Assembly: GCA_015232565.1 (NCBI GenBank) | Contig: JADFZK010000006.1 | Coordinates: 796-64,795 of the forward strand | Source: Candidatus Omnitrophota bacterium | GTDB lineage: Bacteria; Omnitrophota; Gorgyraeia; Zapsychrales; Fredricksoniimonadaceae | Reading direction: 5' to 3' | DNA length: 64,000 nucleotides | Shown: piece after piece, positions 4,940 through 44,187 of the stretch | Layout of the letters: every line of letters starts with the position of its first letter | How positions within the stretch are numbered: the first letter of the stretch is position 1 | The notes under the pieces: generated by a model | What the model was told of the DNA's origin: nothing | The model's input: the letters and a program-made list of their open reading frames with translations, nothing else | Database searches by the model: none | Made by a program: the position numbers and the translations under genes

Positions 4940-6247
4940 GTGCCGGCCAGGGAACCCGAGGAGACGAAAGTGCCAGTACAAACTGAATACGACGATACTA
5001 AAGCCAAACTTCATCGGTATCTGATATCCAAGACTGATTTTATCAAGGTCAAAGATACCCTGAACGATGACCAGATGCGTTTGTATGTGGATGCTGCTAT
5101 TACGGCCTTGTCTCGTGAGAATGATATTATGATCACGCTGGAGGATCGTTTAAAACTGATCCGTGAGATCGCCAGTTCGGTTATGAGCCTGGGTCCCATT
5201 CGGCCTTTGCTGGAAGATAAGGAAGTGACCGAGGTCATGATAAACGGCTATCGGCAGGTTTACGCCCAGAGGTCGGGAAAGATGTTTTTGACCGGGATCA
5301 CTTTCGATGATAATGCGCATCTTATGCATACTATTCAGAAACTTATGGCGGCTTCGGGCACTTCGCGCCGGGTAGATGAGTCGTCTCCTTATGTTGATTT
5401 TTCGCTGAATGATGGCTCACGGGTTAACGTGCTTCTGCCGCCCTGTTCCATGGTGGGACCGGTGGTGACGGTAAGAAAGTTCTCCCGGGATATCTCCACC
5501 GTTGACAATCTGGTTGATCTGGGTACTTTGAGCCGGGCGATGGCTACGTTTTTGATAGCCGCGGTCAAAGCCAAGCTTAATATTGTTTTTTGCGGGGCGA
5601 CCGGTTCCGGAAAGACTACGGTGCTCAATGTGCTCTCCCGGCATATATCCGAGGACGAACGGATCATCACTATTGAAGATACTTCCGAATTGCGCCTTCT
5701 GCAACAGCATGTGGTGGGGTTACAGTCTAAATCAGTGAATATTGAAGGCAAGGGCGCGGTTTCGATCCGCGACCTGTTCATTAATTCCCTGCGTATGCGC
5801 CCGGACCGGATAATTATCGGCGAGGTGCGCGGCGAGGAGATCCTGGATATGATCCAGTCGATCAGTTCCGGCCATTCCGGCACTATGGCTATCGTGCATG
5901 CCGATTCACCCGAGGAATGTTTTAACCGGATGATCACTATGATGCTGATGTCGGGCATTCGTTTAAGCGGCGAGCAGGTGCGCCGCCAGATCGCGACCTC
6001 TATTGAACTTATTGTGTACACCGAGCTTTTTATGGACGGGGTACGCCGGATCGTAAATATTACGGACCTGCGTTTTGACAAGGAAACCGACCGGGTTTCC
6101 CTGGAGGATATTTTCAAGTTTAAACAGGAACATATCGACCCGAATGGCAAGGTGCAGGGGCATTGGGTAATGAACAAGAAATTGCCTTCTTTTGCCGACA
6201 AGTTCGCCAAACGCAATGTGCGTTTGCCGCAAGAGTTTATGCAATAA
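4940..6247 (+). CDS. CpaF/TadA-family secretion ATPase (VirB11-like), orphan
   Basis: Walker A VFCGATGSGKTTVLNVL, ERIITIEDTSEL and RMRPDRIIIGEVRGEE motifs characteristic of TadA/CpaF. No other tad genes are adjacent. Confidence 0.8.
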   Translation: MPAREPEETKVPVQTEYDDTKAKLHRYLISKTDFIKVKDTLNDDQMRLYVDAAITALSRENDIMITLEDRLKLIREIASSVMSLGPIRPLLEDKEVTEVMINGYRQVYAQRSGKMFLTGITFDDNAHLMHTIQKLMAASGTSRRVDESSPYVDFSLNDGSRVNVLLPPCSMVGPVVTVRKFSRDISTVDNLVDLGTLSRAMATFLIAAVKAKLNIVFCGATGSGKTTVLNVLSRHISEDERIITIEDTSELRLLQQHVVGLQSKSVNIEGKGAVSIRDLFINSLRMRPDRIIIGEVRGEEILDMIQSISSGHSGTMAIVHADSPEECFNRMITMMLMSGIRLSGEQVRRQIATSIELIVYTELFMDGVRRIVNITDLRFDKETDRVSLEDIFKFKQEHIDPNGKVQGHWVMNKKLPSFADKFAKRNVRLPQEFMQ

Positions 6248-17233: not shown

Positions 17234-17665
17234 ATGAACAATAAAGGTTTCTCTTTGGTCGAGATGGCGATTGCTTTGGGATTAGTGGCGGTCCTGGTAA
17301 GCGTGGTAACAGCGGGTAGCGGAATGATGGTCAAAAGCCGGGTACATCGTGAAACTGCGGCAGTGGATAGTATGCGGATCGCCGCGCAGAATTATTTATC
17401 GGCCAAGAACCTGACTTATACCGGCATCAGCGTGGCCGCGCTTAAGACGGATGGTTTTCTGCCGGCCAATTTTGATCCGGTTAAAAGCAATTCCTTTGGC
17501 GGTGACTATTTGGTGGCCGAGAATGCGGCGGATAATACCAAAGTTGATATTACTCTGGCCGCGGTGCCGGCGGCTGCTGGTGCTGATCTAAGCAATAATT
17601 TCAAAAGTAAAGCGGAACTGCTGGCTTATGACGCCTCTACCAAGGTTTGGAAAGCTACTTTTTAA
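17234..17665 (+). CDS. type IV pilin/pseudopilin with prepilin-type N-terminus
   Basis: MNNKGFSLVEMAIALGLVAVLVSV: a Gly-Phe cleavage site, Glu+5 and a hydrophobic helix. Confidence 0.75.
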   Translation: MNNKGFSLVEMAIALGLVAVLVSVVTAGSGMMVKSRVHRETAAVDSMRIAAQNYLSAKNLTYTGISVAALKTDGFLPANFDPVKSNSFGGDYLVAENAADNTKVDITLAAVPAAAGADLSNNFKSKAELLAYDASTKVWKATF

Positions 17666-18098
17666 CAATAAGGGCGGCTGGCTGGTGGAGCTGGCAGTGG
17701 CTTTGGTGATCGCGGGAATGTTTGTCGGCGGCCTGGCCAGTTTGGCCAAAGTACAGTTGAATGCGGCCCGGGCCAGGCACACTTTGACCACCATGCGATC
17801 AATACTTAAGGCCGGACAGGATTATCGCGTTTTGCATGGAGTATGGCCGGCAGATATTAAGGAAGTTGAAGCGCTTTTAGCATCTTCTGTCGGAAAGAAT
17901 GCCTGGGGCGGACTGTTTTGGCTTTCTCATAGTGAGGGCCTGGCGTGGGTGGAGACCGATGTACCGTCAGGTGTGGCTGTGCCCCAGGGGCCATGGACGG
18001 CGGTTTATGTTTCCGGTATCGGTGCCGGAAGCCGCTGGCGAATGTCCACCCCCTTGTCCTACGGATTTACCGCGAGGCTGGTTTATGAGACGAAATGA
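17628..18098 (+). CDS. pseudopilin-like protein with atypical leader (…NNKG|GWLVELAVALVIAG)
   Basis: There is no start codon between the upstream stop and the pilin-like helix, so it must start at ATG 17628, overlapping the previous gene by 38 nt. Glu+5 is present, but Trp replaces the canonical Phe. Confidence 0.55.
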   Translation: MTPLPRFGKLLFNNKGGWLVELAVALVIAGMFVGGLASLAKVQLNAARARHTLTTMRSILKAGQDYRVLHGVWPADIKEVEALLASSVGKNAWGGLFWLSHSEGLAWVETDVPSGVAVPQGPWTAVYVSGIGAGSRWRMSTPLSYGFTARLVYETK

Positions 18099-18975
18099 CG
18101 GATTTACATTGTTAGAATTGGCGATCGTGCTGGCCGCTACCGCATTAATAGCCGGCGCAGTAGTGCCTTCATTTATAAAGTCAGCTTTTGTCGATGCCGC
18201 ACGGCGAGCCGCTTTGGAGGTGTCTCAGGTCCAGGAAGCCTCCCGGGCGTATTATGTAAAGAAGAAGGCCTGGCCGGTGGATATTGCGGCTTTAAAGATT
18301 GAAGGTTACCTTGATCCAGCCTGGAGTGGAATTAATCCTTTTGGTAAGCCATACATTCTGGAGCAATCGGGCGAAGTGATGCTGGTCAAGACCGAAGTGA
18401 AGAATGAGGTTGCCGGTGTTTTGCTGGGCACATTGCCTATGTCGGCTCTGAATGCGGGAAGTGTAGTTTCAGGCGTGACTGTTCCCGGTATTGATACGGC
18501 CAATTTACCGGTGGGGGCGGTTATGGCCTGGCCGGTAATGGATATTCCGGCAGGCTGGTTGGTTTGCGACGGCCGGCGGGTTGACCGGCGTGAACATGCC
18601 GAGTTGTTTGCTTTGCTGGGAGTGAATTATGGCGCGGGCGATGGTGCGACTACATTTAATATCCCGGACTTGAGGGGCCGGGCGGTGGTAGGGCTGGACA
18701 ATATGGGTGGTAGTGTGGCCAATGTCATTATGGGTTCCTGGGCCAGGAAGATCGGTGAGAAGTGGGGTGAAGAGACGCATGTTTTGACCACTATGGAAAT
18801 GCCTTCCCATACGCATCCGTATCTGGAAACTCCCTGGCAGGGCGGCCGTTACGATGGCCATTCTTCGCCAGTAATGACGGGTCAGCAATGGTCCACAACA
18901 TTTCCGGCCGGCGGCGGCAAGGCCCACAATAATATTCAACCGTCCATTGCTTTGAACTGGATCATTAAAGGATGA
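18085..18975 (+). CDS. prepilin N-terminus fused to a phage tail-collar (microcystin-dependent protein, MDP) domain
   Basis: Internal ATG 18085 gives MRRNDGFTLLELAIVLAA (canonical prepilin motif); the track ORF start at 17899 is an upstream extension. The C-terminus carries tail-collar motifs: PAGWLVCDGR, LFALLGVNYGAGDG, TTFNIPDLRGRAVVG, HTHPY, GGGKAHNNIQPS. Confidence 0.7.
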   Translation: MRRNDGFTLLELAIVLAATALIAGAVVPSFIKSAFVDAARRAALEVSQVQEASRAYYVKKKAWPVDIAALKIEGYLDPAWSGINPFGKPYILEQSGEVMLVKTEVKNEVAGVLLGTLPMSALNAGSVVSGVTVPGIDTANLPVGAVMAWPVMDIPAGWLVCDGRRVDRREHAELFALLGVNYGAGDGATTFNIPDLRGRAVVGLDNMGGSVANVIMGSWARKIGEKWGEETHVLTTMEMPSHTHPYLETPWQGGRYDGHSSPVMTGQQWSTTFPAGGGKAHNNIQPSIALNWIIKG

Positions 18976-19880
18976 AGCCGTTCAAGAATATTTCAGCCCT
19001 GATCTTATTGTTGGTAAGCAGTGCTTTTCCATTTGCCGCTCGGTCCGAAAGTTTGGCGGTACTGACCGGGAGGGCCGACTGGAATTGTGTGCGCTTGGAG
19101 CTTACCGGCCAGGCCTGCAGCCGGGTAGCCCCGCCCTATGCGGGCGTAATGATGCGTTATTGGCAACCGGTCTTAATGGTGGAAACGGTCAAGAGGCCGG
19201 GCGACACCGCGGTTAATGAATACCGTTCCTTGCTGGGAGAACCGTTAAAACAAATGGCGGCAACGGCCATGGGGGCGGGGAGCGCGAATATGGACAGCGG
19301 ATCGGGGTACTCGGCAGATACCACGGCGGTGCAAATGAGTGATGTGCATGTGATGGGGTTTCCGGCTTCCAGCATATTTTCGGCGATCATTGAACCGGTT
19401 TGCGAAGGCTCTCCCGAACTGTCGAGCTCAGTCAGTTATCTTAGTGAAAGAGATGCCGTGGAATGGCGGACGCTCAAGAATGAATCCCGGCATCCAATGT
19501 CTTTGCTGTCCGCGGCTATGGCTCCGATGTGCGAGGGCGGACAGATAACTACTCCGGGGATGTGCATTGGGGTTTGGGGGCCTTTGTATCCTCGAGGCGG
19601 TTTTATTGCCGGTTATAGCCCGGTTGTGGGTTCGGCGGCTTTGGCTTACCGGGGTGTGGATATAGCCTCGATCAACCCTTTATCGGTTTTTCATAGCCGG
19701 GTAATGCCTTTGCTTTTTGTTCCGGATCCTTTCTGGGACAGAATGCAGATGGTTTATCCGCAAGCTTCCCGGTGCCTGAAGATCGGGGAGGATCCCCGTA
19801 CCTGGGAACAGGATCGGGTTTCAGCAGACGGGAAATATGTATGGATATACTGGCGCAAAAAAGAATGCTGTGCGTTGTGA
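18972..19880 (+). CDS. Cys/Trp-rich secreted protein, possibly of the TraU family (F-type pilus assembly)
   Basis: Signal peptide MKPFKNISALILLLVSSAFPFAA; about 10 Cys and many Trp. The C-terminal motifs MCIGVWGPLYPRGG and YVWIYWRKKECC resemble my recollection of TraU-family conserved blocks. That assignment is from memory only. Confidence 0.5.
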   Translation: MKPFKNISALILLLVSSAFPFAARSESLAVLTGRADWNCVRLELTGQACSRVAPPYAGVMMRYWQPVLMVETVKRPGDTAVNEYRSLLGEPLKQMAATAMGAGSANMDSGSGYSADTTAVQMSDVHVMGFPASSIFSAIIEPVCEGSPELSSSVSYLSERDAVEWRTLKNESRHPMSLLSAAMAPMCEGGQITTPGMCIGVWGPLYPRGGFIAGYSPVVGSAALAYRGVDIASINPLSVFHSRVMPLLFVPDPFWDRMQMVYPQASRCLKIGEDPRTWEQDRVSADGKYVWIYWRKKECCAL

Positions 19881-20227
19881 TATTGGCGGGTCTGGGGCTG
19901 GCGGGCAACCTGGCGAGTGCCGATGACTCGGCAAGAAAATACGGCCTTTCGGCACTGGATTATTTTAGCCGGGTGAAGTTACAAGATGCAGGACGGGCGG
20001 AATTTTTGGCTGATGAACTGTGGGGTGAGGCAAGTCGTTTGCCGGGAGGATCAGTTGAGGTCCATTACCCGCCTGGCCCGGTATTGGATTTTTTACAAAC
20101 GCCCAATGCTGAAACCGGGCGGCGCTATTTACGCTGGAACGAGCTTCGGCTGGAGAAGATCCAAAAGGCCCAGGAAGTGTTGAACAAAATGATCGAGGAT
20201 CCACCTGGTGCGGCGGACGTTCATTAG
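19841..20227 (+). CDS. small secreted hypothetical protein
   Basis: An internal ATG gives MDILAQKRMLCVVILAGLGLAGNLASA, a signal peptide. The ORF overlaps the upstream gene's end. The start is uncertain; ATG 19865 is an alternative. Confidence 0.5.
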   Translation: MDILAQKRMLCVVILAGLGLAGNLASADDSARKYGLSALDYFSRVKLQDAGRAEFLADELWGEASRLPGGSVEVHYPPGPVLDFLQTPNAETGRRYLRWNELRLEKIQKAQEVLNKMIEDPPGAADVH

Positions 20228-20256
20228 AAACCATGATAAACCAGAAAGGTATTTTT

Positions 20257-20694
20257 ATGTTCAAACGATTAATGTTGGTTTTAATCTGTACGATCTTGTG
20301 CGCGTCGATAACCCGGGCCGAGGATGGTACGGACGAGCTGGTGCGGTTACGCCGGCAAGCCCAGGATGAACGCCGTAAAGAAGAACAGATCCAGATGATG
20401 CGGCTGGAACTGGAGAAGCTGAAGCTGGAGGTGGAGACTCGCAAGACCATGGTTGAAATGGGTATGGCCGGGGCGGTGTCTTCACCGAGCGGAGTAGCCA
20501 ATATCACCGTTGAAGTAAAGAATATAGTAGTCAGTCCGGAAGGCGCCAGCGCCGTACTGGAAGTTGGCGGCAGCAGGCAAATGGTTAAAGCGGGAGATGC
20601 GGCTGGCCCGTATACAGTCAAAAGCATCACTGCAAACGAAGTGGTTTTGGTTGATGCCAAGGGCGGGGAGCTGAGGAGCACTTTGCGTATATGA
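20257..20694 (+). CDS. secreted coiled-coil protein (PilP/GspC-like accessory?)
   Basis: MFKRLMLVLICTILCASITRA signal peptide, preceded by AGAAAGG. A charged coiled-coil segment followed by a beta-rich C-terminus. The track start is 20233. Confidence 0.5.
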   Translation: MFKRLMLVLICTILCASITRAEDGTDELVRLRRQAQDERRKEEQIQMMRLELEKLKLEVETRKTMVEMGMAGAVSSPSGVANITVEVKNIVVSPEGASAVLEVGGSRQMVKAGDAAGPYTVKSITANEVVLVDAKGGELRSTLRI

Positions 20695-30038: not shown

Positions 30039-32519
30039 ATGAAACCAATCAAATTCTTACTTATAAGTGTGCTTATCGCTGGGCTTTGCTCAGCGCCTGT
30101 TTTTGCCGCAGGGTCGAACGAGAAAGAAGTTTTCGTGGTGGCTCAGCGGGCTTTTGAGGACGGGTTCTACGATGTGTCCTTGCGTTATATCGACCAGCTT
30201 TTTAAAGAATTCCCGCAAACTACCAAAACCGTGGATGCCCGCCTGCTGGAAGGCCAGTGTTATTTTTTTAAGAAACAGTATTTAAAAGCCTTTGCGGTTT
30301 TTCAGGAATTGGCCAAGCGCAATGAATACAAGGACGTGACCCTGTTCTGGCTGGGGGAAACATATTTGAAAGTGGGCGACAGCGCCAAAGCCCAGGAACA
30401 GTATCGTCAGCTGATCGACGGCTATGTTAATTCGCTTTATGCGCCGCAGGCTTATTATTCGCTGGGCTGGAGTTATTTCGAGAAGGGCAGTTACGAGGAC
30501 GCCCGCAACGCTTTCGCCAAACTGGTGGAGTTGTTCCCGTCTAACAATCTGGCCGAAGACGCCGCTTTCAAGCTGGGGGAATGCGACTATAACGCCGCTA
30601 AATATGAAGGCGCGATCTTCCATTTCAATAAATATCTTACCGCTTACCCGAACTCCGCGCGGTTGGCCGAAGCTGTGTTTAACATCGGGGAGTCTTATTA
30701 TTATCTCGAACAGTTCGACCGTGCGGCTGAGTTTTACGAGAAAGCCCGTGCGGCCGCGGTGGATCCGCGCACAGCCCTTAACGCGATGGTGGGCCGGGGC
30801 TGGAGCCTGTTTAAAAAGAACGATTTTCCGGCCGCGCTGAAGGCTTTCGACGACGCCCAGGCGCATGCCAAGGTTAACAATTTTCCCGAGGACGATGTGC
30901 TTCTGGGCAAAGCCAGCCTTTTTACCGCCCAGGAGAAATACCAGGATGCCGCGGCCAGTTACGGCGAGCTCATCACGCGTTTTCCGGCCAGCTCCCGGGT
31001 GCCGGAAAGTTATCTGGGCCGCGCCAATGCTTTGTACCTGCTGAACGATTTTGCCCAGGCTATCGAGGATTATAAAGCGCTTATCGCCTTGCCGCCGGAG
31101 AGTGGCGTAAATGAAAAGACCCTGGAAAAGGCGCGCTTCGGTTTGGCCTGGACGTATCTTAAGAACGGTAATATCGATCAGAGTATCGAGAGTTTCAAGG
31201 GTGTATTGGAACGTACGGAAAGTAAAACGGTCAAGGTGAGCGCGCTGACGCAGATCGGCGACGCCTATCAGGAGGCCGGCCAGATCGATAAAGCCATCGC
31301 TACCTATGACCGGGTGCTTAAGGATATGCCGGACACCCCGTATTCGGATTACGTGCAGTACCGGCTGGGGGTGGCGGTGCTCAAGATCGGCAACATTGAT
31401 GCCGCTATTTTGGCTTTCCAGGCTTTAAAGGCTAATTATCCGAGTAGCAAGTACATCCCCGAAGCGCAATATTACCTGGGGGTTTCGTATTTCAAAAAAC
31501 GCGATTGGGCCGCGACACTGGAAGTCTTGAGCCCTTTTGTAAAGGCCGTAGCATCGGATAATGAGTTCTCGTCCGAGGCGCGTTATCTGGAAGCGCTGTC
31601 TTTGTTCAACCTTAAGCAATACGACAAAGCGCTGGCCGCTTTTACCGAGATGCAGAAATTATTTCCCGCCAAACCCGCGGTTTTGCGTAATGCGGAATTG
31701 GGAATTGCCAAGACCAAATACGAGACCGGGAATGTTAAAGAAGCTCTACAGCTCTTTGAGCAGGTGGCGGCGCGTTACCCGCAGTCGGACGCGGCGCTGG
31801 AGGCTTTTTTGTGGATGGGCGATCATGCCATGTCTTCCGGCCTTTACAGCCAGGCCGAAGCCCTGTATGTCCGGATCTTGGCCGATTTCCCCGGGAATGA
31901 AAAACGCTACCTGGCGCATTTCGAACTGGGGCGCGCGTATTACGCCCAGGGGGTGCTGGATAAAGCCCTGGAACAATATCGCAATGTTAATATTCCCTCC
32001 GACCCCGAGCTGGCGGCCCGGGCCAAGCTGGCTATTGCGGAAATATTCACCAAGGAAATGGATCCGGTCAAGGCAGTTGAGGCGTACCAGAATATTATTG
32101 CCACCAGCCCGGAATACCAACGCGACGCCTTGCTAAAGATCGCCCAGATCGACCGTAAGGCCGCCAAATATGCCGACGAGTTGAAAGCTTACGAAGCCGC
32201 TCTCGCCGCGCCTAAAGGCGTTTCGGCGGTTAAAGACGTGCAGTTACAATTCCTGTTGGGCGACACTTACGAGGCCATGAACGAGCCTAATAAAGCGGTG
32301 GAAGCTTATGTGAAAGTTCCGTACGTCCACGCCAAGGAACGGGATTGGGTCATTAAGGCGTACTTGCGCATTGGCAAGATCTACGAGAACCAGGAAGAAT
32401 GGGACAAGGCGGTTACTGCTTACGAAAAAGTGGGCGCCATGAATGTGGATGAGGCCAAGTTCGCCAAAGAACGTGTGGCAGCTATTGCACGCAACAGGCT
32501 TAAGCCCCGGGAAGAATGA
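30039..32519 (+). CDS. large secreted TPR-repeat protein (YbgF/CpoB-like repeats)
   Basis: Signal peptide MKPIKFLLISVLIAGLCSAPVFA; more than 15 TPR-like repeats (…YY.LG..Y…A…F…); upstream of the ExbB/ExbD-like genes. Confidence 0.8.
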   Translation: MKPIKFLLISVLIAGLCSAPVFAAGSNEKEVFVVAQRAFEDGFYDVSLRYIDQLFKEFPQTTKTVDARLLEGQCYFFKKQYLKAFAVFQELAKRNEYKDVTLFWLGETYLKVGDSAKAQEQYRQLIDGYVNSLYAPQAYYSLGWSYFEKGSYEDARNAFAKLVELFPSNNLAEDAAFKLGECDYNAAKYEGAIFHFNKYLTAYPNSARLAEAVFNIGESYYYLEQFDRAAEFYEKARAAAVDPRTALNAMVGRGWSLFKKNDFPAALKAFDDAQAHAKVNNFPEDDVLLGKASLFTAQEKYQDAAASYGELITRFPASSRVPESYLGRANALYLLNDFAQAIEDYKALIALPPESGVNEKTLEKARFGLAWTYLKNGNIDQSIESFKGVLERTESKTVKVSALTQIGDAYQEAGQIDKAIATYDRVLKDMPDTPYSDYVQYRLGVAVLKIGNIDAAILAFQALKANYPSSKYIPEAQYYLGVSYFKKRDWAATLEVLSPFVKAVASDNEFSSEARYLEALSLFNLKQYDKALAAFTEMQKLFPAKPAVLRNAELGIAKTKYETGNVKEALQLFEQVAARYPQSDAALEAFLWMGDHAMSSGLYSQAEALYVRILADFPGNEKRYLAHFELGRAYYAQGVLDKALEQYRNVNIPSDPELAARAKLAIAEIFTKEMDPVKAVEAYQNIIATSPEYQRDALLKIAQIDRKAAKYADELKAYEAALAAPKGVSAVKDVQLQFLLGDTYEAMNEPNKAVEAYVKVPYVHAKERDWVIKAYLRIGKIYENQEEWDKAVTAYEKVGAMNVDEAKFAKERVAAIARNRLKPREE

Positions 32520-33208
32520 TGATGTGGGAATCCGCGCCCTGGCAGTTATTCTCAATCGGCGGGCCTTTGTTGTGGCCAATACTTTTTTGCTCGGTCTTCG
32601 CTACAGCAATTGTTATCGACCGGGTGCTGTTCTTTTACAGCCTAAATGAAGACGTGGCCGCGTTAAAGCGCGCGATCTTTATCGCGGTTCGTAACAACGA
32701 CATAAAAAGCGCCATGACGGCGTGTGATGTGTCCGCCACGCCGTTGGCTCGGGTTTTAAAAGCCGGACTAATGCAGTATGGCCGCGGCAAGGAAGAGATA
32801 GCGGCGGCAATGGCCCAGGTAGTAAAACTGGAAGCGGTGGTTTTGCGCCAGCGTTTACCGGCTTTGGCGGCAATAGGGCGGGTGGTGCCATTACTGGGTT
32901 TTCTGGGTACGGTGACCGCTTTGTGTTCTTTGTTCCATACCATGTCGGTGCGTTCGCAGGCTTTCAATCAGCTTACTCCGGCCGATGTTTCCCGGGGTGT
33001 TTGGTCGGCGCTCATAACTACCGAAGCGGGCTTGATAGTTATGATACCTTGTGTTTTGGCGTATAGTTTTCTGGCGGATCATCAGGACCGTTATGGGTGC
33101 AAAATGGCCCAGGCCGCCGCGGACCTGGCCGACTTTCTGGTGCATACCGCGGAGCCTCCGGCAATCGCAGAAGGGGACGACGAAAGTGGACCTGCGCAGG
33201 CTGTTTAA
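32516..33208 (+). CDS. MotA/TolQ/ExbB-family proton channel
   Basis: Three-TM topology and C-terminal ExbB-like conserved region; 4-nt overlap with the TPR gene. Confidence 0.8.
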   Translation: MMMWESAPWQLFSIGGPLLWPILFCSVFATAIVIDRVLFFYSLNEDVAALKRAIFIAVRNNDIKSAMTACDVSATPLARVLKAGLMQYGRGKEEIAAAMAQVVKLEAVVLRQRLPALAAIGRVVPLLGFLGTVTALCSLFHTMSVRSQAFNQLTPADVSRGVWSALITTEAGLIVMIPCVLAYSFLADHQDRYGCKMAQAAADLADFLVHTAEPPAIAEGDDESGPAQAV

Positions 33209-34622: not shown

Positions 34623-36203
34623 ATGGTACCCACGCAGAAACTAGGCATATATTGGGGCAATACCGGCATTAGCCTGGTAGAGCTCAGCAAGGACGCGGTC
34701 GTTAACTCGGCCTTTGTGTCCTTTGCCGATATGGAAGCCAATGCCGTGGTGGGGTTAAGCACCATAAACGCAGATTTGCGTTTGCTCGACATAGTGCAAA
34801 GGACCTTGCGTTCCAGTTCTTTCTCGGTGGGTAATGCTTACCTGTCGCTTCCGTCCAAAGACATTATTGTGCGCTGGTTTGTTATACCCTGGGTAAAGCC
34901 CGATGAAGTTCAGGGTATGGTGTCGTTCGAGGCCAAGAAATATCTGCCCTTTGCCATGGACGAGCTCTTTTTTAATTATTACCCCTCGACCATCACCAAG
35001 GACGGCACCCGCAAGATCGGCATAGTGTTGACGGCCATTCGCAAGGTGCATTACGAGCGTTATTACAATGTGCTGGTGCAGGCTGGTATCAACGTGGTGT
35101 ATAGCGAGCCGTCGGCCATGAGCCTTTTGCGCACCATGGTGTACCGCAAGCTGGTGAATACCGAGCAAACCAGCGCGATCCTGATAGCGCGGGAAGAATC
35201 CTGCGAAATAGTGATTGCCTCCAAAGGTCATATCCGGTTCATCCGGGATTTCTCATTGCGGCCGGCCCAGGCGGGCACCGAGGAAAATAGCGACGATCTT
35301 TTTCGCCTCAAGTTCTTTAACGAGATCCGGATGTCGCTGGATTTCTTTTCCCGTGACAACGGCGGGCAGGATGTGGCCAAGATCATAGCGGTGTCTTCGG
35401 GGCTTAAGCTTTCGTTCTTCGATGGCATGTCCGAGGATGTGGGCCTGCCCGTGCAGGTTATGGAGCATTTTCAGGTCCTGGAGAATACCAATGCGCTGGT
35501 GGACATAGGGTATTTACGGGCTTTTGGCGTGGGGCTTTCGGGACAGGTGCCCACGGTAATAGATTTTAATTTGAGCGAAGGCAATGTACACGGCGGTGCC
35601 AAGAAGGCCGAAGGGGCCCGGCCGCCGCTCATTCCGCCGCAAGCCTTACTGGTAGCGGCGGTGGTCTGTTTGTGCGCGGGGTTGCTGGCGGCCAGCTGGT
35701 GGTGGATAAACGGCCAGATGCAGAAAGAGCAGGCGCTTAAGCAGGAAGTGTCTGCCCGCCTGGGGCGAAATTTGGATACTCCGCGGGAAGATTTTGACAG
35801 CAAGATAACTTTGTTGAATAAAAAGATCGAAGCGGTAAAAAGTTTGCCTTTAAAAAGGGCCCTGGCGGATTTCTTTGTTTATTTCGTCAAACTGATGCCG
35901 GCGGGCATGTGGTTTGACAATGTGGATATTGCGTACACCAGTACCAGCCAGGGCGGCGCGGCGCCCAAAAAGCTTTCGGCGGCGGATTATTATGTGGTCA
36001 AGACTTCGGCTCGCATGTCCATAACCGGTTTTGCTTCGCTGGGCGATACCAATGCCGAGTTTGAGCTGGTAAACCAGTTCGTGGTAAAATTACGTAACGA
36101 TGCGCGGATAAAACAACTGTTCCCCGACGTGAAGCTTAAATCGCTTCAGGCGCGGGATACCGGAGCCAAACAAAAGATCACCGCGTTCACCATAGATTTC
36201 TAA
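34623..36203 (+). CDS. pilM: type IV pilus assembly protein PilM fused to a PilN-like TM/coiled-coil module
   Basis: About 330 aa of actin-like PilM domain, followed by a TM helix (LLVAAVVCLCAGLLAASWWWI), a coiled coil and a periplasmic domain; 526 aa. Confidence 0.75.
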   Translation: MVPTQKLGIYWGNTGISLVELSKDAVVNSAFVSFADMEANAVVGLSTINADLRLLDIVQRTLRSSSFSVGNAYLSLPSKDIIVRWFVIPWVKPDEVQGMVSFEAKKYLPFAMDELFFNYYPSTITKDGTRKIGIVLTAIRKVHYERYYNVLVQAGINVVYSEPSAMSLLRTMVYRKLVNTEQTSAILIAREESCEIVIASKGHIRFIRDFSLRPAQAGTEENSDDLFRLKFFNEIRMSLDFFSRDNGGQDVAKIIAVSSGLKLSFFDGMSEDVGLPVQVMEHFQVLENTNALVDIGYLRAFGVGLSGQVPTVIDFNLSEGNVHGGAKKAEGARPPLIPPQALLVAAVVCLCAGLLAASWWWINGQMQKEQALKQEVSARLGRNLDTPREDFDSKITLLNKKIEAVKSLPLKRALADFFVYFVKLMPAGMWFDNVDIAYTSTSQGGAAPKKLSAADYYVVKTSARMSITGFASLGDTNAEFELVNQFVVKLRNDARIKQLFPDVKLKSLQARDTGAKQKITAFTIDF

Positions 36204-36233
36204 TCAGTGTTGAACGAGCAAAACTGATCGTAG

Positions 36234-36413
36234 GGGCCGACCTAGTGTGGTGATTCATATATCTCTTTACATTTGAATCACCACACTGGAGCAATGGAGC
36301 AATCGAAAATGGAGAAATATTAAAACATTTGGCTCCATTGCGGTCTATTTTCGATTTTCCAATGCTCTTCAAATGTAAAGAAGCGTCAGACACACTACAC
36401 TAGTGTCGGCCCG
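36234..36413. repeat. nested imperfect inverted-repeat element (~45-nt arms with internal perfect 13-bp stems); possible structured RNA, MITE or cruciform
   Basis: Arm 36234-36277 (GGGCCGACCTAGTGTGGTGATTCA…TTTGAA) is the reverse complement of arm 36368-36413. Inside: a 13-bp perfect stem GTGTGGTGATTCA/TGAATCACCACAC, a GGAGCAATGGAGCAAT direct repeat, and GCAATGGAGC/GCTCCATTGC pairing. Confidence 0.5.
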
Positions 36414-36492
36414 GTATGAGATGCGAATAGAGATGCAAACATTTACCGAAGGACGGAGATAAGCTCCGCCCCTAACGTTAGCAGGGCGCACA

Positions 36493-37161
36493 ATGGTTCA
36501 GTTTAAATTCAACGACAATAATGCTTTTGGCGGAGTTGGCAAAATGGGCGGAAAGAGCCCGGTGGCCATGCCGTCCAAGCTCACGGTGGAAAGCGTTAAG
36601 GAGTTTGCGCTTAAGCGTAAGGCCGAAACTTTTTGCGTGGTGCTGGTGCTGGTGACCGGGATCGTAGTCTGGTTGTTTATCACCTCGCAGTTGCAAAAGG
36701 TCAGCCAGATTAAAAGTGATGTGCAATTGTTGCTCGATAAAGAAACAGTCATCGCCAAGTTCAACAAGGTATCTACCGAAGGCGCGGCTCTAATGGGCAC
36801 TGTGCCGGGCGCTTTACCGGAGAACAGGTTCATTACCCAGCTGACAGCGCTGGCTAACAAGCGCAATGTTGCGGTTACGGCAATTTCGCCGCCAAGCACC
36901 AAAGACAGCGGGTTCTTTCGGTATATCAGCACCCAGCTTTCCTGCTCGGCCGACAATTTTAATGATGCTTTACTTTTCATAAACGACGTAGACCAGTCCG
37001 AGTTCGCGCTAAAAGTGGATTCCTGGAAAGTGCGGCAGGCGGGCGCGGCTGATTTTAGCAATACAGTTAACCCCGCCGGAGCTTCTGGCCGGCTGGACAT
37101 GGTGATAGTGGTTTCTTCTATCGATATACTGGGCAATGAAAAGGCCAAAAGTGCGAAATAG
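36493..37161 (+). CDS. PilO/GspM-like bitopic pilus assembly protein
   Basis: Single TM (FCVVLVLVTGIVVWLFI), coiled coil and periplasmic domain; position between pilMN and pilP/pilQ. Start uncertain. Confidence 0.5.
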   Translation: MVQFKFNDNNAFGGVGKMGGKSPVAMPSKLTVESVKEFALKRKAETFCVVLVLVTGIVVWLFITSQLQKVSQIKSDVQLLLDKETVIAKFNKVSTEGAALMGTVPGALPENRFITQLTALANKRNVAVTAISPPSTKDSGFFRYISTQLSCSADNFNDALLFINDVDQSEFALKVDSWKVRQAGAADFSNTVNPAGASGRLDMVIVVSSIDILGNEKAKSAK

Positions 37162-37627
37162 CGGAACAATTCTATTTATCGGTTTTTTTCTGGCCTTCGG
37201 CCTGGGTCTATTCCCGGTGCGTGCGCTGGCTGCGAATGCCCAGCTCGATGCGGTAGGCGCTTTGGAACTGGCCATTATCAATCTGGCCGATCCTTTTAAG
37301 TCGAAGATCAAGGTGGTGGTGGAACCGGTGATAGTTAAGCCGGCGGTTAAGCCGGAAGCTCCTCCTCCGCCCGTAAAGAAAGATCCACCCAAGGTGGAGA
37401 TCAAGCCGGTACTGCCGCCGGTCATTACTTTACCGGCCATGAGTTTGACCGGGATAATGTTCAGCAAGGTTCGGCCGATGGCCATAATTAACGGCGAGGT
37501 GGTGGAGCCCGGGGATTCTTTGGCGGCGGGCAATGGAGTGGTTAAGCTGATCGAGATAAAAAGGGACAGTGTGCTGGTGACTTATTCCGGCAAGACTTTT
37601 ACTATAGCTACAAGCCAGGAGGAATGA
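37136..37627 (+). CDS. PilP-like pilot lipoprotein (signal peptide, Pro-rich linker, C-terminal beta domain)
   Basis: MKRPKVRNSGTILFIGFFLAFGLGLFPVRALA; a PPPPVKKDPPKVEIKPVLPP linker; directly upstream of the secretin. Confidence 0.5.
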   Translation: MKRPKVRNSGTILFIGFFLAFGLGLFPVRALAANAQLDAVGALELAIINLADPFKSKIKVVVEPVIVKPAVKPEAPPPPVKKDPPKVEIKPVLPPVITLPAMSLTGIMFSKVRPMAIINGEVVEPGDSLAAGNGVVKLIEIKRDSVLVTYSGKTFTIATSQEE

Positions 37628-39060
37628 TGATCAGACAGCGGTTGATACTGCTTTTTTCGTTTTGCTTTTTTTTGCACACCGGGCTTTTGTATGCGGCCAA
37701 GGGGGAAACGGCGGGTTTTGTTCTGCCGCAATATTCCCAGCGGATCTCCCTGGACTTCAAGGGGGCCGACCTGAAAGACGTGCTGAAAGTTTTTTCCAAA
37801 CAGATCGGGGCCAATTTTATTTTCGACAAAGACGTGCAAATGGGCACCACCACGGTTTTTCTGGATAATGTGCCGGTGGAAGAAGCCTTGATGCAGGTGT
37901 TGGAGTCCAACGGCCTTACTTACGAGTACAATGAAGGCATGAACCTTTTTGTGATCAAGACCAAAAAGGAGGACGAGGAAACGTTGGTAACCCGGATGTA
38001 TCCGCTTAATTACGCTTCGGTGGATTCGTCAAAAATGAAACTTACCGGTGGCACCAGCAGTGGTGCTATTGGTGCTTCCTTAAAATCTGTGTTATCGTCA
38101 AAGGGCAAAGTCGTGGACGATGCGCGTACCAACAGCCTTATTGTTTCCGACCTGGAGAAGAACTTCCCGGAGATCGAGCGCATGATCGCGCGACTGGATG
38201 TGCCGCTTAAACAGGTTTTGATCGAGGTAGAGATGCTGGATGTTTCCAAGAGCACCTCCGATACGCTGGGTGCGAGATTTAATCTGGTAGGTAGCTTTAA
38301 GACCGGCACCATGACAACTCCGTTTCCTTTTAATAATCTGGCTAACAAAAACGAGACTGACGGGCGGACGTTTGAGCCGGCGACTTTAACTCTTTCTGAA
38401 GCGGGTGTTGTATTAAGTTTTTTGAAGAGCAAAACAGATACCATCAGTCTGGCTCGTCCACGAATAACGACCAATGAGAATGAAACTGCAACTATTCAGA
38501 TAGCCACCGATGAAGCTATCGGCATTAAAACTACTACAGCTACAGATACTACTTCACCCGGGCAAGAAGTTGAGCGCTATCAAACCGGAGTTTTTCTGAC
38601 TGTTACGCCACAGGTTAATAGATTAACCAATGAAATTTCCCTGGCAATTGAACCTAGAGTTATTGATGCTTCGATCGAGAAAACTTTTAATGGTATTGAT
38701 TATAAAAACCCCGAAGAACGTAGTGTGAAGGTGATGTTACGGGTACCTAACGGGCAATCCGTTGTTATTGGTGGTTTACTGAGGCGTACAAAGTCGGACG
38801 GACGCACTAGTGTGCCCTTCCTTGGTAGTTTGCCATTGATCGGTGCTGCTTTTCGGAGTTCCGAAAAAGAAAACAATGACCGCGAGTTAATGGTTTTCTT
38901 AACGCCTTATGTACTGGAATCCAGCCAGCCTTTACCGCAAGAGTTAAAGACCGAGATCAATAAACAGTTGCAACTTCGTGAACAAACTACGTCCGACCTG
39001 CGCAGTGGGGCAGTTAACCGCGAGCTGGATATGCTTAACCGTTTCAACAAGGAACGCTAA
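37624..39060 (+). CDS. pilQ: type IV pilus secretin
   Basis: Signal peptide; an N0/secretin-N-like region; C-terminal secretin domain motifs (VPFLGSLPLIGAAFRS…ELMVFLTPYVL). Confidence 0.85.
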   Translation: MMIRQRLILLFSFCFFLHTGLLYAAKGETAGFVLPQYSQRISLDFKGADLKDVLKVFSKQIGANFIFDKDVQMGTTTVFLDNVPVEEALMQVLESNGLTYEYNEGMNLFVIKTKKEDEETLVTRMYPLNYASVDSSKMKLTGGTSSGAIGASLKSVLSSKGKVVDDARTNSLIVSDLEKNFPEIERMIARLDVPLKQVLIEVEMLDVSKSTSDTLGARFNLVGSFKTGTMTTPFPFNNLANKNETDGRTFEPATLTLSEAGVVLSFLKSKTDTISLARPRITTNENETATIQIATDEAIGIKTTTATDTTSPGQEVERYQTGVFLTVTPQVNRLTNEISLAIEPRVIDASIEKTFNGIDYKNPEERSVKVMLRVPNGQSVVIGGLLRRTKSDGRTSVPFLGSLPLIGAAFRSSEKENNDRELMVFLTPYVLESSQPLPQELKTEINKQLQLREQTTSDLRSGAVNRELDMLNRFNKER

Positions 39061-39068
39061 GGGTAAAT

Positions 39069-40802
39069 ATGGCACGTCTTCGTTTGGGAGAGCGGTTGAT
39101 CAAGCAGGGCCTTATAACCGAGGCCCAACTGCAGGAAGCTCTTGACGACCAGAAGAAAGACAAGCTCCCGGTGGGGGAGATACTGGTTAACAAAGGCTAT
39201 CTTAAAGAGGAGGACCTGGCCGCGGCCATTGGTTCCCAGCTTTTGATCCCGTATGCTTCGCGTGCTTCCGGGATGCTTAACCCTCAGCGCCAGCAGAACC
39301 TGGAAAAAATAATTCCCTACGAGTTCGCCAAAGAGCACCTGGTTTTGCCGCTTAACCATAATATGAATTCGCTCACCTGCGGCATTTTTAATCCTTTCGA
39401 TCTAATAATGATCGACAACCTTAAAAAGATCACCGGTTGCGAAATTAACTTCGTGATCGCCACGCGTACCGACCTGCTGAAATCCATCCTGGAATTCTAT
39501 GGCAATATTTCCGGCGATTCCAAGGCTGGCGGCAGTGTGCTGTGGGGCGAGGCCTTACAGCGTTCACGCGATATGTCGCCGGCGAGCAGTGTAATTGTAA
39601 CTGACGATGCCAGCGAAGCCGAGTTGAGCCTGGACAAGGTTATCGCCAAGGCCGAGGAAGCGCCGGTCATCAAGCTGGTAGACCTTATCATCCGCCAGGC
39701 GATCGACGAGCGGGCCAGCGATATCCATATTGAGCCTTTCAAGGAAAAAGTGGAAGTGCGTTACCGCATAGACGGCGAGTTGTACCAGATCCCTCCGCCG
39801 GCCAAGCATTTGCATTTGCCCATTGTTTCGCGTATCAAAATTTTGGCCAAGCTCGATATTGCCGAAAAACGCTTGCCGCAAGACGGGCGCATTTCGGCCA
39901 AACTGGAAGACCGCACGGTAGACTTGCGTGTTTCGTCCTTGCCCACGGTGTGGGGCGAGAAGATCGTAATGCGTATTCTGGACAGCGACGCTATCAAGCT
40001 TCAGCTGGCCACGCTGGGTTTCGAGCCCAGTCAGCTGGAGATAATCCGTAAAGGCCTCAAGGTGCCTTACGGCCTGCTTTTTGTTACCGGGCCGACTGGC
40101 AGTGGTAAATCTACTACTCTTTATTCGGCTTTAACCGAGGTGCTGGACCCCACCAAGAACATTATGACCGCCGAAGACCCGGTGGAGTTTCGTATAGAAG
40201 GGGTTAACCAGGTGCAGGTGCGGCCCGACATCGGGTTTACTTTTGCCGAAGCTTTGCGCTCTTTCCTGCGCCAGGACCCGGATATTATAATGGTCGGCGA
40301 GGTGCGCGATATCGAAACCGCCCAAATTTGCACCCGCGCCGCGCTTACCGGCCACTTTGTGTTAAGCACTTTGCATACCAATGACGCCGCTTCGGCCATT
40401 ACCCGTTTGCTAGACATGGGTATACCCAGTTACCTGTTAACGCCTTCCTTAACCATGATAATCGCCCAGCGTTTGGGCCGCAAACTGTGCCCGCTGTGCA
40501 AGGAGCCTTACGAACCCAAGGTGGAGGACCTCGGCGATGTAAAGCTTAAGGCCGACCTGATCTACCGGGCCAAGGGTTGTGACAAATGTTCCCATACCGG
40601 CTATAAAGGCCGGCTGGTAATTGCCGAAGTCCTGTTGATAGACGACGAGATCCGCCGTATTATTGGTAACAATGGCACTTATACTGAACTGCGCGACGCT
40701 TCGCGCAAGAACGGCATGATGACCCTGTTTGAAGCCGGCTTGCGTAAAGTTGAAGCGGGGATTACCAGTTTGGAAGAGATCTTCGGAGTGACCGCGGGGT
40801 AA
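39069..40802 (+). CDS. pilB: type IV pilus assembly ATPase PilB/GspE (set 2)
   Basis: T2SSE_N domain, Walker A VTGPTGSGKSTTLYSAL, GEVRDIETA, and CPLC…CDKC tetracysteine. Confidence 0.9.
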   Translation: MARLRLGERLIKQGLITEAQLQEALDDQKKDKLPVGEILVNKGYLKEEDLAAAIGSQLLIPYASRASGMLNPQRQQNLEKIIPYEFAKEHLVLPLNHNMNSLTCGIFNPFDLIMIDNLKKITGCEINFVIATRTDLLKSILEFYGNISGDSKAGGSVLWGEALQRSRDMSPASSVIVTDDASEAELSLDKVIAKAEEAPVIKLVDLIIRQAIDERASDIHIEPFKEKVEVRYRIDGELYQIPPPAKHLHLPIVSRIKILAKLDIAEKRLPQDGRISAKLEDRTVDLRVSSLPTVWGEKIVMRILDSDAIKLQLATLGFEPSQLEIIRKGLKVPYGLLFVTGPTGSGKSTTLYSALTEVLDPTKNIMTAEDPVEFRIEGVNQVQVRPDIGFTFAEALRSFLRQDPDIIMVGEVRDIETAQICTRAALTGHFVLSTLHTNDAASAITRLLDMGIPSYLLTPSLTMIIAQRLGRKLCPLCKEPYEPKVEDLGDVKLKADLIYRAKGCDKCSHTGYKGRLVIAEVLLIDDEIRRIIGNNGTYTELRDASRKNGMMTLFEAGLRKVEAGITSLEEIFGVTAG

Positions 40803-40805
40803 TTT

Positions 40806-42038
40806 ATGCCAAAATTCTTTATTACATTCAAAGATAAAACCGGCAAGAACAAAACCTCCCTGGTTGACGACCGCGACAGCAATTCGGCGGTGGCGGGTGT
40901 GCAGGCGCAGGGTTTTTATGTTATCGCCGTGCAACCTATGGAAGAAGCCGTGCCCAATGCGCCGGTTTCCGCGGCGGCCCTGCAGAACCGCAAGTTCACG
41001 CACAACAATGTGCGCCTGATGGACATTGTGGTGTTCGCCCGTCAGCTGGCTACCATGCTGGAATCCGGGGTGCCGCTGTTAAGGAGCCTTACGGTTATTT
41101 TAGACCAGCTGGAAAGCCGTCAGCTGGCGATGGTGGTGGCGCAAGTGCGCGCCGATATCGAGCAGGGCCTGGCTTTCAGCAAAGCGCTGGAAAAACACCC
41201 CAAGGTTTTCAGTCAATTTTGGGTGAGCCTGGTTGAAGTGGGCGAGGCTTCGGGCACCATGCCCAAAGTGCTTAAGAAGCTCACCGAGTACGCCGAGGAA
41301 AGTGTAAAATTCCAGTCCCAGCTGGTGGGGGCAATGATCTATCCCGGTGTTCTGCTATTTATCGTGACCCTGGCGGTGCTGGCTTTTGCCTTGTTCGTAG
41401 GGCCTATTTTCGAGAAGGTCTTTATGGACATGAAGATGGAACTGCCCGGGATCACTTCGTTTATGATGGGCTTGTTCAAGTTTATCCAGACCAAGTTCCT
41501 TTTTATAATAATGGGTATCACGGGTTTTGTTTTTGCTTTCAAAGCTTATGCTGCAACGGCGGGTGGCCGCTGGCAGATCGAGATGTTGCTTTATAACGTG
41601 CCCACGCTGGGCAATATTATCCGCCTGATCGTGGTGGAGAAGTTCACCTCCCAGATGGCTATTCTTATAGAAAGCGGCGTGCCCATTCTTTACGCGCTGG
41701 AGATCTCGGAGCGTTTGGTCGACAATATGGTTTGTGCCGCGGTGTTAAAAGATGTGCGCGAAGATGTGCGCGAAGGCAAACTGCTGGCCGATTCGCTGGA
41801 GAAAAGCACATTTTTTCCGTCGATGGCAGTGCAAATGATCCGCGTAGGCGAGGAAACCGGCGAGCTTTCCAAAATGCTGGGGCACGTTTCGGTGTTCTAT
41901 AAAGAACAGGTGCAGGAATTCATGAAGAATATCTCGGTGCTGATAGAGCCCGTGATGCTGGTAGTAATGGGCGGCGTAATAGGCACCATGGTGGTGGCGA
42001 TGTTCCTGCCGCTATTGTCTATCTCTACCGGCGGTTGA
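40806..42038 (+). CDS. pilC: type IV pilus platform protein PilC/GspF (set 2)
   Basis: Two T2SSF repeats; 410 aa. Confidence 0.85.
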   Translation: MPKFFITFKDKTGKNKTSLVDDRDSNSAVAGVQAQGFYVIAVQPMEEAVPNAPVSAAALQNRKFTHNNVRLMDIVVFARQLATMLESGVPLLRSLTVILDQLESRQLAMVVAQVRADIEQGLAFSKALEKHPKVFSQFWVSLVEVGEASGTMPKVLKKLTEYAEESVKFQSQLVGAMIYPGVLLFIVTLAVLAFALFVGPIFEKVFMDMKMELPGITSFMMGLFKFIQTKFLFIIMGITGFVFAFKAYAATAGGRWQIEMLLYNVPTLGNIIRLIVVEKFTSQMAILIESGVPILYALEISERLVDNMVCAAVLKDVREDVREGKLLADSLEKSTFFPSMAVQMIRVGEETGELSKMLGHVSVFYKEQVQEFMKNISVLIEPVMLVVMGGVIGTMVVAMFLPLLSISTGG

Positions 42039-42216
42039 GTTTTGTAAATATGGGTGTGCACGCGGCGTTCTTTGGTAATACTAAAAAATCACTTTTCTCT
42101 TTTATATTCAACTTTGTGTGCGATAATATTTTCATTAACTCAATACCCAAAGCTACGAAAGGAGACTAAAGGTTTCGAAAGATAAATATCATATACCAAA
42201 ATTAAAAGGAGATCTT

Positions 42217-42669: not shown

Positions 42670-42685
42670 TTTAAACAGTTAGAAA

Positions 42686-42722
42686 GGAAGGCGGCTTGCA
42701 CTCAGGGCGCCTTCCTTTTTTC
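42686..42722 (+). terminator. rho-independent terminator after the major pilin gene
   Basis: GGAAGGCG-loop-CGCCTTCC followed by TTTTTTC. Confidence 0.65.
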
Positions 42723-42726
42723 TTCT

Positions 42727-43134: not shown

Positions 43135-43135
43135 T

Positions 43136-44100: not shown

Positions 44101-44187
44101 TTAAGGCTTTCGAATATGTCCATCCAGTTAAAAGAGTGTATCGGTTTCGTAGGCCCAAAGGCCCCACCCGGCCCCATAGGGGCCAGG

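Follow-up and report, generated by a model that had tools for sequence, protein, structure and literature searches.

The periplasmic factors TraU, TraW, TraF and TrbC, which act in pilus formation and transfer in conjugation systems of mating-pair formation (MPF) class MPF_F, have homologues only in class MPF_G (PMC4027160). TraU of the F plasmid is required for DNA transfer and for mating-pair formation more than for piliation, and it is rich in cysteine, with TrbB and TraF as candidate redox partners (PMC7555446). Plasmids of class MPF_I add a type IV pilus for mating in liquid, and the protein that is named TraU there is a homologue of VirB4 (PMC4027160); the PilV adhesins of such pili set specificity (PMC9045228). 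In this work we describe a TraU-family gene that lies within a type IV pilus-like gene cluster in a 64,000-nucleotide (nt) stretch of DNA from a Candidatus Omnitrophota bacterium (assembly GCA_015232565.1, contig JADFZK010000006.1, forward-strand positions 796 to 64,795; hereafter the window). Judged from the gene order of its relatives, the window locus is a rearranged half of a composite operon that joins an F-like type IV secretion system (T4SS) with a pilus module.

The TraU open reading frame (ORF) is exactly the one, of 302 amino acids (aa), that a sequence-only reading of the window had delimited, and the resemblance to TraU which that reading had put forward was borne out by three kinds of comparison. 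The Pfam TraU profile (PF06834) matched the protein with 101.2 bits (E=9.1e-29; gathering cutoff 26.5) over profile positions 41-305 of 306, and hhalign aligned a 27-member family profile with F-plasmid TraU over 276 columns (Prob 98.3%, E=1.6e-14). In a joint alignment, in which the overall identity to F TraU is 21.6%, seven of the eight cysteines of the window protein (positions 39, 49, 144, 187, 198, 268, 299 and 300) fall on C41, C70, C153, C196, C215, C294 and C327 of the F protein; the count of about ten cysteines made from the sequence alone was too high. The homology to F TraU is near full-length, and the motifs YLSE-D, YPR-G and WRK-C are common to both proteins, as is a signal peptide, which in the window protein (N-terminus MKPFKNISALILLLVSSAFPFAARSE) was assigned as a Sec signal by reading of the sequence and not by a dedicated predictor. 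Four cysteines of F TraU (C26, C38, C101 and C267) have no counterpart in the window protein, which in turn carries a CC doublet at its C-terminus. The four sequence blocks that had caught the eye as conserved are all present in the ORF, and invariant residues were recovered in them when 27 family sequences were aligned. The invariant residues of this alignment are C144, W202, G203, P207, R208, G210, C268, W291, W294, C299 and C300, with C39 and C49 conserved in more than 90% of the sequences; the cysteines of the clade are either invariant or more than 85% conserved, and the window protein also contains eight tryptophans. An identical protein has already been labelled 'TraU family protein' by NCBI in a metagenome-assembled genome (MAG) of Candidatus Omnitrophica. 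By these profile and alignment comparisons, the window protein is a genuine yet divergent member of the TraU family. An AlphaFold2 model of it was reasonably confident (pLDDT 79.8, pTM 0.81), and nothing like TraU was found in the PDB, by sequence or by fold.

The family comprises 32 clusters with 42-76% identity, and PF06834 was found in all 32 homologues. Sixteen species-representative genomes encode members of the clade; 14 of these bear the label Omnitrophota, one Planctomycetales and one an unclassified 'bacterium', and the complete Ca. Velamenicoccus archaeovorus LiM genome is among the sixteen. MAGs supplied nearly all of the context data, and the locus scan relied on clade-specific peptide patterns and was therefore aimed at loci of the Omnitrophota type. 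In about 20 Omnitrophota loci, in which the identity of TraU ranges from 37 to 76%, a PilS-like pilin, the small protein p156 and a pilin with a phage tail-collar domain are followed by TraU and then by a homologue of the small proteins p103 and p122. The exceptions are few: p156 is missing in two loci (L008 and L025), the p103/p122 homologue follows TraU in every locus but L008, from which it is absent, with other sequence intervening in L019 and L020, and the collar pilin and TraU are directly adjacent in all loci but those of Ca. Velamenicoccus archaeovorus (L019/L026). In the latter, a gene pair for a GNAT toxin and a TacA-type antitoxin lies on the minus strand between the two (L019 9087-9880; L026 21646-22516, CP019384.1).

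Three architectures were distinguished among these loci. Type A, the complete form, has the order secretin-p357-p169-p153-ATPase-platform-pilins-TraU-p103-p414 (L003/L011, L004, L008, L009, L015, L019 and L025); type C consists of ATPase-platform-pilins-TraU-p103-p414 (L010, L012 and L016-L018); and type B, to which the window belongs together with L001/L002 and L005-L007, has the order pilins-TraU-p122-p153-ATPase-platform in a constant housekeeping neighbourhood. Wherever a type A locus included enough sequence upstream, the secretin gene is preceded by a gene for an F-type TraC/VirB4 ATPase, either directly or with one small ORF between; this order was seen in L008, L009, L011, L015, L025 and L028. 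This TraC matches Pfam TraC_F_IV and scores 377 bits against the NCBIfam model for F-type TraC versus 165 bits against the MPF_G model. TraL, TraE, TraK, TraB and TraV are encoded further upstream in contigs L026-L029, the TraB/TrbI protein matching F-type TraB with 81.7 bits, and the F-like core also includes a TraA-like pilin; the assignments of TraV, TraK, TraL and TraA, like those of MobC and TraW below, are weak. Ca. Velamenicoccus archaeovorus adds a TraD-type coupling protein (SXT_TraD, 93.8 bits, below cutoff), a TraG_N protein and a MobC-like match (26.7 bits versus a cutoff of 200). The T4SS core is contiguous with the TraU cluster in L025/L027 and in L026 (Ca. Velamenicoccus archaeovorus) and shares a contig with it in L029+L016, and TraC is contiguous with the cluster in L008, L009 and L011. 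In one lineage, a core half-locus (L028 16512-22472), consisting of the T4SS core, the secretin, p318, p163 and p155, is followed directly by a giant ORF of more than 3,215 aa that extends past the end of the locus.

The full order would thus be (TraA-like pilin)-TraL-TraE-TraK-TraB-TraV-TraC, then the pilus module, then TraU, a thioredoxin or TraF-like protein and p414, with the coupling protein and TraG_N nearby. The T4SS genes have the same order as those in the F tra operon and in the MPF_G backbone of plasmid pUM505, and the pilus module is thus an insert that separates traC from traU. On this gene-order evidence, the pilus module, from the secretin through the pilins, is located inside a complete F-like T4SS operon in most lineages, and the ancestral form appears to have arisen by insertion of a module related to mannose-sensitive haemagglutinin (MSH) or type IVb pili into an F-like, MPF_F/G-related operon. 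The inserted module would have comprised the secretin, three small proteins, a GspE-like ATPase, a GspF-like platform, the PilS-like pilin, a minor pilin and the tail-collar adhesin pilin. The splitting of the operon can be seen on a single contig, CAZXSE010000002.1, whose first part carries the core, the secretin, p357, p169 and p153, and which after about 21 kb of housekeeping genes continues with ATPase-platform-pilins-TraU-p103-p414. The two halves do not correspond to a T4SS and a pilus, because the break falls inside the pilus module itself. The mixture of T4SS and type IV pilus parts that was suspected from the window alone is real and is conserved over about 20 loci, but it is not a pilus system that has picked up a lone TraU.

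Three indirect observations suggest that TraC and the secretion core are probably kept elsewhere in the genome of the window. The window TraU is MBF0386646.1, on a 79.5-kb contig, and the TraC protein P0204 is MBF0387720.1, on a 40.8-kb contig, 1,074 accessions further on in the same block of the NCBI Prokaryotic Genome Annotation Pipeline. A second pair of the same clade, TraU MBF0593713.1 and TraC MBF0594608.1 (P0187), lies 895 accessions apart. In a co-phylogeny analysis (Spearman 0.82 over seven genomes with known TraU-TraC pairs), P0204, P0187 and P0197, which form a TraC group of their own, were the top three of 19 candidate TraC proteins in fit to the window TraU.

The comparison with described systems shows where this composite locus differs from each of them. 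As compared to F, a whole pilus module lies between traC and traU in Omnitrophota, no T4SS gene is near the window TraU, and no convincing TraW, TrbC, TraN or TraH was found in the Omnitrophota loci. The best plasmid matches to TraU in tblastn searches were in MPF_G elements (ICEHin1056, PAPI-1, pKLC102 and pUM505), with about 24-25% identity. Elements of the PAPI-1 type use a type IVb pilus for transfer. The backbone of pUM505, in the order TraV-like protein, TraC ATPase, hypothetical protein, DsbA, TIGR03757 protein, TraU-like protein, 460-aa protein, hypothetical protein and TraG_N, is the same as that of the Omnitrophota loci. However, pUM505 has no pilus genes within 20 kb on either side of its TraU gene, whereas the Omnitrophota pilus genes are interleaved with those of the T4SS; the MobH relaxase and the integrase of MPF_G elements were not seen in the Omnitrophota loci; and the Omnitrophota TraC is, by the scores given above, nearer to the F type than to MPF_G.

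The plasmids IncI1 R64 and IncI2 TP114 likewise combine a T4SS with a type IV pilus, whose major pilin is of the PilS type and whose adhesin is a larger minor pilin (PMC4027160, PMC9045228), and the order of the Omnitrophota module, that is, secretin, small proteins, ATPase, platform, pilin and adhesin pilin, is like that of the R64 thin pilus. The T4SS of R64 is, in contrast, of the Dot/Icm-like MPF_I class, which has no homologue of the F-type periplasmic TraU (PMC4027160), and the Omnitrophota adhesin has a phage tail-collar domain with no shufflon seen, in a system that is chromosomal and widespread in the phylum. An R64-type type IVb pilus was rejected as the exact pilus class, since the secretin and the ATPase score better with MSH or GspE models, and below every equivalog cutoff. 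The ATPase has an N-terminal domain of the MshEN type, and MshL gave the highest score for the secretin of complete loci (222 bits, cutoff 250, versus 142 bits for PilN), as in filaments related to MSH pili and to the type II secretion system (T2SS). With the MshL score below its cutoff and the MshE-type cyclic di-GMP motif of the ATPase at 35.8 bits versus a cutoff of 38, these proteins are relatives of the MSH components and not their equivalogs. Unlike MSH and T2SS filaments, the machinery is embedded in a T4SS operon and its accessory proteins match no family.

Because T4SSs are already known to cooperate with type IV pili, both in IncI plasmids and in elements of the PAPI-1/pKLC102 type, the hybrid or novel filament proposed from the window sequence is accepted here as a hybrid at the level of the operon; a new chimeric filament goes beyond what was found.

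It could be argued that TraU of the window is a gene in decay, left behind by a degraded conjugative element, located beside pilus genes by chance and without function, as the window contains no T4SS core genes and its cluster is reduced when compared with a complete type A locus. The state of the gene speaks strongly against this. The ratio of nonsynonymous to synonymous substitution rates (dN/dS) of TraU is 0.149 in the comparison with L005, which is similar to that of the pilus ATPase (0.087), the values for p122 being 0.14-0.37; synonymous sites are saturated in pairs more distant than those used. TraU is under purifying selection and is a functional gene. Since the ORF is intact, every family-invariant residue and the cysteines are kept and dN/dS is low, and since the eight-gene order of the window is found, with 57-70% identity and the same housekeeping neighbourhood, in at least five other species-level genomes, a functionless relic is hardly credible.

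The recent acquisition of the cluster as part of an integrative and conjugative element (ICE) or plasmid, as in PAPI-1/pKLC102, would be in keeping with the location of the nearest characterised TraU relatives on ICEs and plasmids and with the coupling protein, the weak MobC-like protein and the inserted toxin-antitoxin pair of the Ca. Velamenicoccus archaeovorus locus. We nevertheless regard it as improbable. The GC content of the TraU region (0.54-0.55) is that of its flanks, which consist of housekeeping genes (infB, trpS, scpA, ruvB and spoIID upstream; amt, panC, an aspartate dehydrogenase gene and uvrA downstream) whose synteny is conserved across species, and no signature of an integrase, a relaxase or a tRNA site was seen. 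Furthermore, at least 143 clusters of TraC homologues are spread widely across the phylum, and every locus examined has a chromosomal setting with housekeeping genes around it.

With a probability of roughly 60%, we favour the reading that TraU works in the periplasm as a disulfide-bonded accessory factor, within a composite contact apparatus that combines secretion with a pilus. A collar-tipped pilus would attach the cell to a partner or prey cell, a role that is suggested by analogy with the thin pili of R64 and PAPI-1, which serve the T4SSs of these elements, and the T4SS would transfer cargo. TraU, together with the TraF-N-like p122, might be an accessory component in the periplasm, associated with the outer membrane, that turns the contact made by the pilus into a stable, transfer-competent junction, as in F-type systems. 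The localisation of TraU, its disulfides (up to four from the eight cysteines), its partners and its function are what we infer here, and a contact-and-transfer apparatus is the most economical reading of the facts in PMC4027160, PMC7555446 and PMC9045228.

Several points weigh against this reading. The 64-kb window contains no T4SS core gene and no coupling protein, and its TraU cluster has no secretin, p357, p169 or p414 of its own, with no homologue of the last three anywhere in the window. The case for TraC in the same genome depends on accession proximity and on a seven-point correlation. Against the NCBIfam equivalog of F TraU (PRK13737 / NF010297) the protein scored 24.8 bits versus a cutoff of 298, and even the best NCBIfam match, the MPF_G ICE TraU-like model TIGR03756, gave 62.2 bits versus 188.35; by these scores, it is a homologue and not an equivalog of F TraU, nor is it an equivalog of the MPF_G type. 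There is no TraU structure or biochemical mechanism to anchor the proposed role, the review literature likewise giving no structural information on TraU (PMC7555446). No relaxase was found in any locus examined, and DNA transfer is thus not established. Finally, TraU remained beside the pilins and not beside the T4SS core in each of the two kinds of rearrangement, which fits a pilus-linked role as well.

This last point leads to the possibility that TraU, with p122, has been co-opted and now serves in the assembly or stabilisation of a type IV pilus-like filament, in a chimeric machine. In its extreme form, the GspE/GspF motor would push a fibre of pilins out through an F-type outer-membrane core or beside it. 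TraU comes after the collar pilin in all loci, and in the window the two genes are adjacent and translationally coupled by an ATGA overlap of start and stop; types B and C are independent rearrangements in which TraU went with the pilins, the ATPase and the platform and not with TraC and TraB; and the window cluster has to do without a secretin of its own. However, insertion of the pilus module at the traC-traU junction of an operon with the F and MPF_G gene order accounts fully for the adjacency, and as the split of type C cuts the pilus module, the side on which a gene remained says little about its partners. In addition, descriptions of the conjugative TraU family are confined to T4SSs (PMC7555446, PMC4027160), and TraC is probably retained in the same genomes. 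We therefore consider co-option unlikely. We are more doubtful still of a physically chimeric nanomachine, in which an F-type T4SS core and a GspE/GspF-driven pilus would share envelope parts, with TraU and the TraF-N-like protein coupling them, and with which these ultra-small epibionts or predators would latch on to hosts via the collar pilin and inject nucleic acid or protein. If it existed, the secretin-less half-locus of the window would depend on the T4SS outer-membrane complex, and the machine could be the route of the predator-to-prey RNA transfer that has been reported for Ca. Velamenicoccus archaeovorus (PMC13153191).

Some more remote members of the family are also associated with T4SSs. 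A broader protein search retrieved at least three distant TraU relatives, all in T4SS contexts, and those with 28-30% identity have ordinary T4SS surroundings in which pilus genes are absent. An exhaustive profile search of 1.84 billion representatives gave 726 clusters of the TraU superfamily, 60 of them at E<=1e-30. Loci of such 28-30% relatives from Desulfurella and other MAGs (L022-L024) share another conserved T4SS neighbourhood, with the order MreB-like_C protein, small ORFs, TraU, then proteins of 206 aa, about 260 aa and about 495 aa, and TraG_N; L022 also encodes a coupling protein, a GGDEF protein and an HD-domain protein, and the label of one of these MAGs, Sulfolobaceae archaeon, is probably a binning artefact. 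A distinct lineage, apparently of high GC content as inferred from its Ala/Gly/Pro-rich sequences, consists of long proteins (422-1328 aa; P0064, P0067, P0070-P0072, P0074, P0077, P0084, P0086, P0090 and P0142) with a C-terminal TraU domain. On its N-terminal side, this domain has one or two repeats that contain cysteine (FAWDYP...TQC...TPDTLC...CLxPGxY), a linker rich in Pro and a hydrophobic segment rich in Gly/Ala, and it is followed by a conserved 'CGITLPGxGGHGxNxC' tail.

The p103/p122 proteins correspond to the N-terminal domain of longer proteins in L019 of Ca. Velamenicoccus archaeovorus (243 aa) and in L020 (233 aa), which end in a thioredoxin domain with CPVC or CPYC that is absent from the p122 of the window. 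These long forms match Pfam TraF (31.6 bits, cutoff 23) and Thioredoxin_2 (32 bits), and, below cutoff, the NCBIfam models for TraF-like TIGR02740 (29 bits) and TrbB (22 bits). The core motif of p122 (PP..V.dfL.dP..e.a..YL.W) could be aligned to a Thermovibrio pTHEAM01 protein, in the stretch that leads up to its thioredoxin domain (Prob 55%, E=1.2e-4); this protein is encoded about 2 kb from TraU with three genes between. The TIGR02740 alignment and the Thermovibrio comparison together suggest that the N-domain of p103/p122 may be TraF-like; comparison of this domain with the single sequences of F TraF and F TrbB gave nothing (Prob below 1%). A thiol-oxidoreductase beside a Cys-rich TraU has parallels in F (TrbB/TraF; PMC7555446) and in pUM505 (DsbA), and Ca. 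Velamenicoccus archaeovorus encodes a further CxxC protein of 201 aa with a weak match to TraW (E=0.0056). The protein p414 (393-425 aa), which follows TraU/p103 in complete loci, matched no Pfam or NCBIfam family and was rejected as TraH (hhalign Prob 1% versus F TraH) and as the MPF_G 460-aa protein (Prob 1.6% versus the pUM505 protein), with which its homology is unproven; its comparison with a Thermovibrio 402-aa protein gave Prob 19%. No family was matched by p357, p169, p153 (for which Pfam was searched) or p156, and in the loci scanned there were no matches to TraN or TrbC and none convincing to TraH.

The eight genes of the window cluster (Table 1) overlap or abut, with start/stop overlaps throughout the operon. 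The neighbours that the sequence-only reading had named, namely pilins upstream and a T2SSE ATPase and a T2SSF platform downstream, were found as described.

Table 1. Genes of the TraU operon, with positions counted from the first nucleotide of the window.
Feature	Position	Strand	Remarks
PilS-like type IV (major) pilin, 143 aa	17234..17665	+	Pfam N_methyl 25.7 bits, above cutoff
p156, putative minor pilin	17628..18098	+	prepilin-like G/E+5 motif at ...NNKGGWLVELAVALV
Pilin with C-terminal phage tail-collar domain, 296 aa from likely start	18085..18975	+	Pfam Collar PF07484 74.7 bits
TraU-family Cys-rich protein, predicted periplasmic	18972..19880	+	ATG start, 302 aa, Pfam TraU
p122, secreted small protein	19841..20227	+	start at M24 of listed ORF, inferred from orthologues
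p153, secreted small protein	20233..20694	+	always before pilus ATPase, PilP-like position
GspE/PilB/MshE-like assembly ATPase, 515 aa	20691..22238	+	Pfam T2SSE 322.5 bits, MshEN 21.6 bits
GspF/PilC-like inner-membrane platform, 341 aa	22235..23260	+	Pfam T2SSF 138 bits, two repeats

The PilS-like pilin, which has the same position in all related loci, scored just under the cutoff for the PilS N-terminal domain (20.5 bits versus 22). Its gene is overlapped by 38 nt by that of p156, a protein that has a weak match to GspG (E=6e-4) and whose gene separates that of the PilS-like pilin from that of the collar pilin in nearly every locus. The start of the collar pilin (MRRNDGFTLLELAIV) was set from a 299-aa orthologue called in L001; the protein also matches N_methyl (23.6 bits) and, in its PilV-like position, is a putative tip adhesin. 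The p153 protein is homologous to the 153-aa protein encoded upstream of T2SSE in complete clusters. Against NCBIfam models, the ATPase scored 319.7 bits for GspE and 304.9 bits for PilB, both under the equivalog cutoffs, and the platform scored 160 bits for GspF, also below cutoff. A scan of the region from 15.5 to 23.8 kb for promoters and terminators gave counts no higher than in shuffled sequence.

Other parts of the window also encode pilus-related and envelope-related proteins. A second cluster of the type IV pilus/T2SS kind (34623-44805) begins with a PilM_2-domain protein (526 aa) and two small proteins, one of them T2SSB/C-like, and continues with a secretin (37624-39060), a GspE/PilB-like ATPase with MshEN (39069-40802), a GspF-like platform (40806-42038) and five prepilin-type proteins (42217-44805). 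No other secretin is encoded in the window, and that of this second cluster might in principle be used by the TraU cluster, which lacks one. A third T2SSE-family ATPase (4940-6247, 435 aa, Pfam T2SSE 160 bits) stands alone, with rseP (M50 protease) on one side and the gene of a class II tRNA synthetase (tRNA-synt_2b + HGTP_anticodon) on the other; it may be an ATPase for retraction or assembly of the PilT/TadA kind. An 826-aa protein with multiple tetratricopeptide repeats (TPR), followed by a MotA/ExbB-family protein, is encoded at 30039-33208, in the interval from uvrA to the second pilus cluster. A stretch of low GC content (45557-58408; 0.37-0.45 versus about 0.53 elsewhere) encodes large proteins, several without a Pfam family (505, 451, 534 and 516 aa) and two with C-terminal TPR repeats, as well as an Acyl_transf_3 acyltransferase and a PMT_2 glycosyltransferase, and resembles a cell-envelope glycan or O-antigen-like island.

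Partnerships between a T4SS and a type IV pilus are already known, and the resemblance of the present system to those of IncI plasmids and PAPI-1 is evident. It is distinguished by its single interleaved operon, by a secretion system that is closer to F than to MPF_I or MPF_G, by its chromosomal location apparently without a relaxase, and by its occurrence in ultra-small, host-dependent bacteria. Papers on Omnitrophota describe type IVa and Tad pili and giant genes; surveys that list these two kinds of pili do not list a composite T4SS-pilus system (PMC10066038), and in the searchable literature on the phylum there is no mention of TraU, of TraC or of the composite operon. TraU-type proteins have so far been tied to conjugative systems of the F and G types on plasmids and ICEs, and the clade described here has become chromosomally fixed in an entire candidate phylum, whose members are ultra-small and live as host-dependent or predatory bacteria. 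The naturally 'split' and 'fused' operons offer a comparative handle on which parts of the two machines cooperate, including the group of TraU, TraF and thioredoxin proteins. If the apparatus mediates contact with hosts or prey and macromolecule transfer to them, it would be a testable candidate for how Ca. Velamenicoccus archaeovorus and similar organisms attack other cells.

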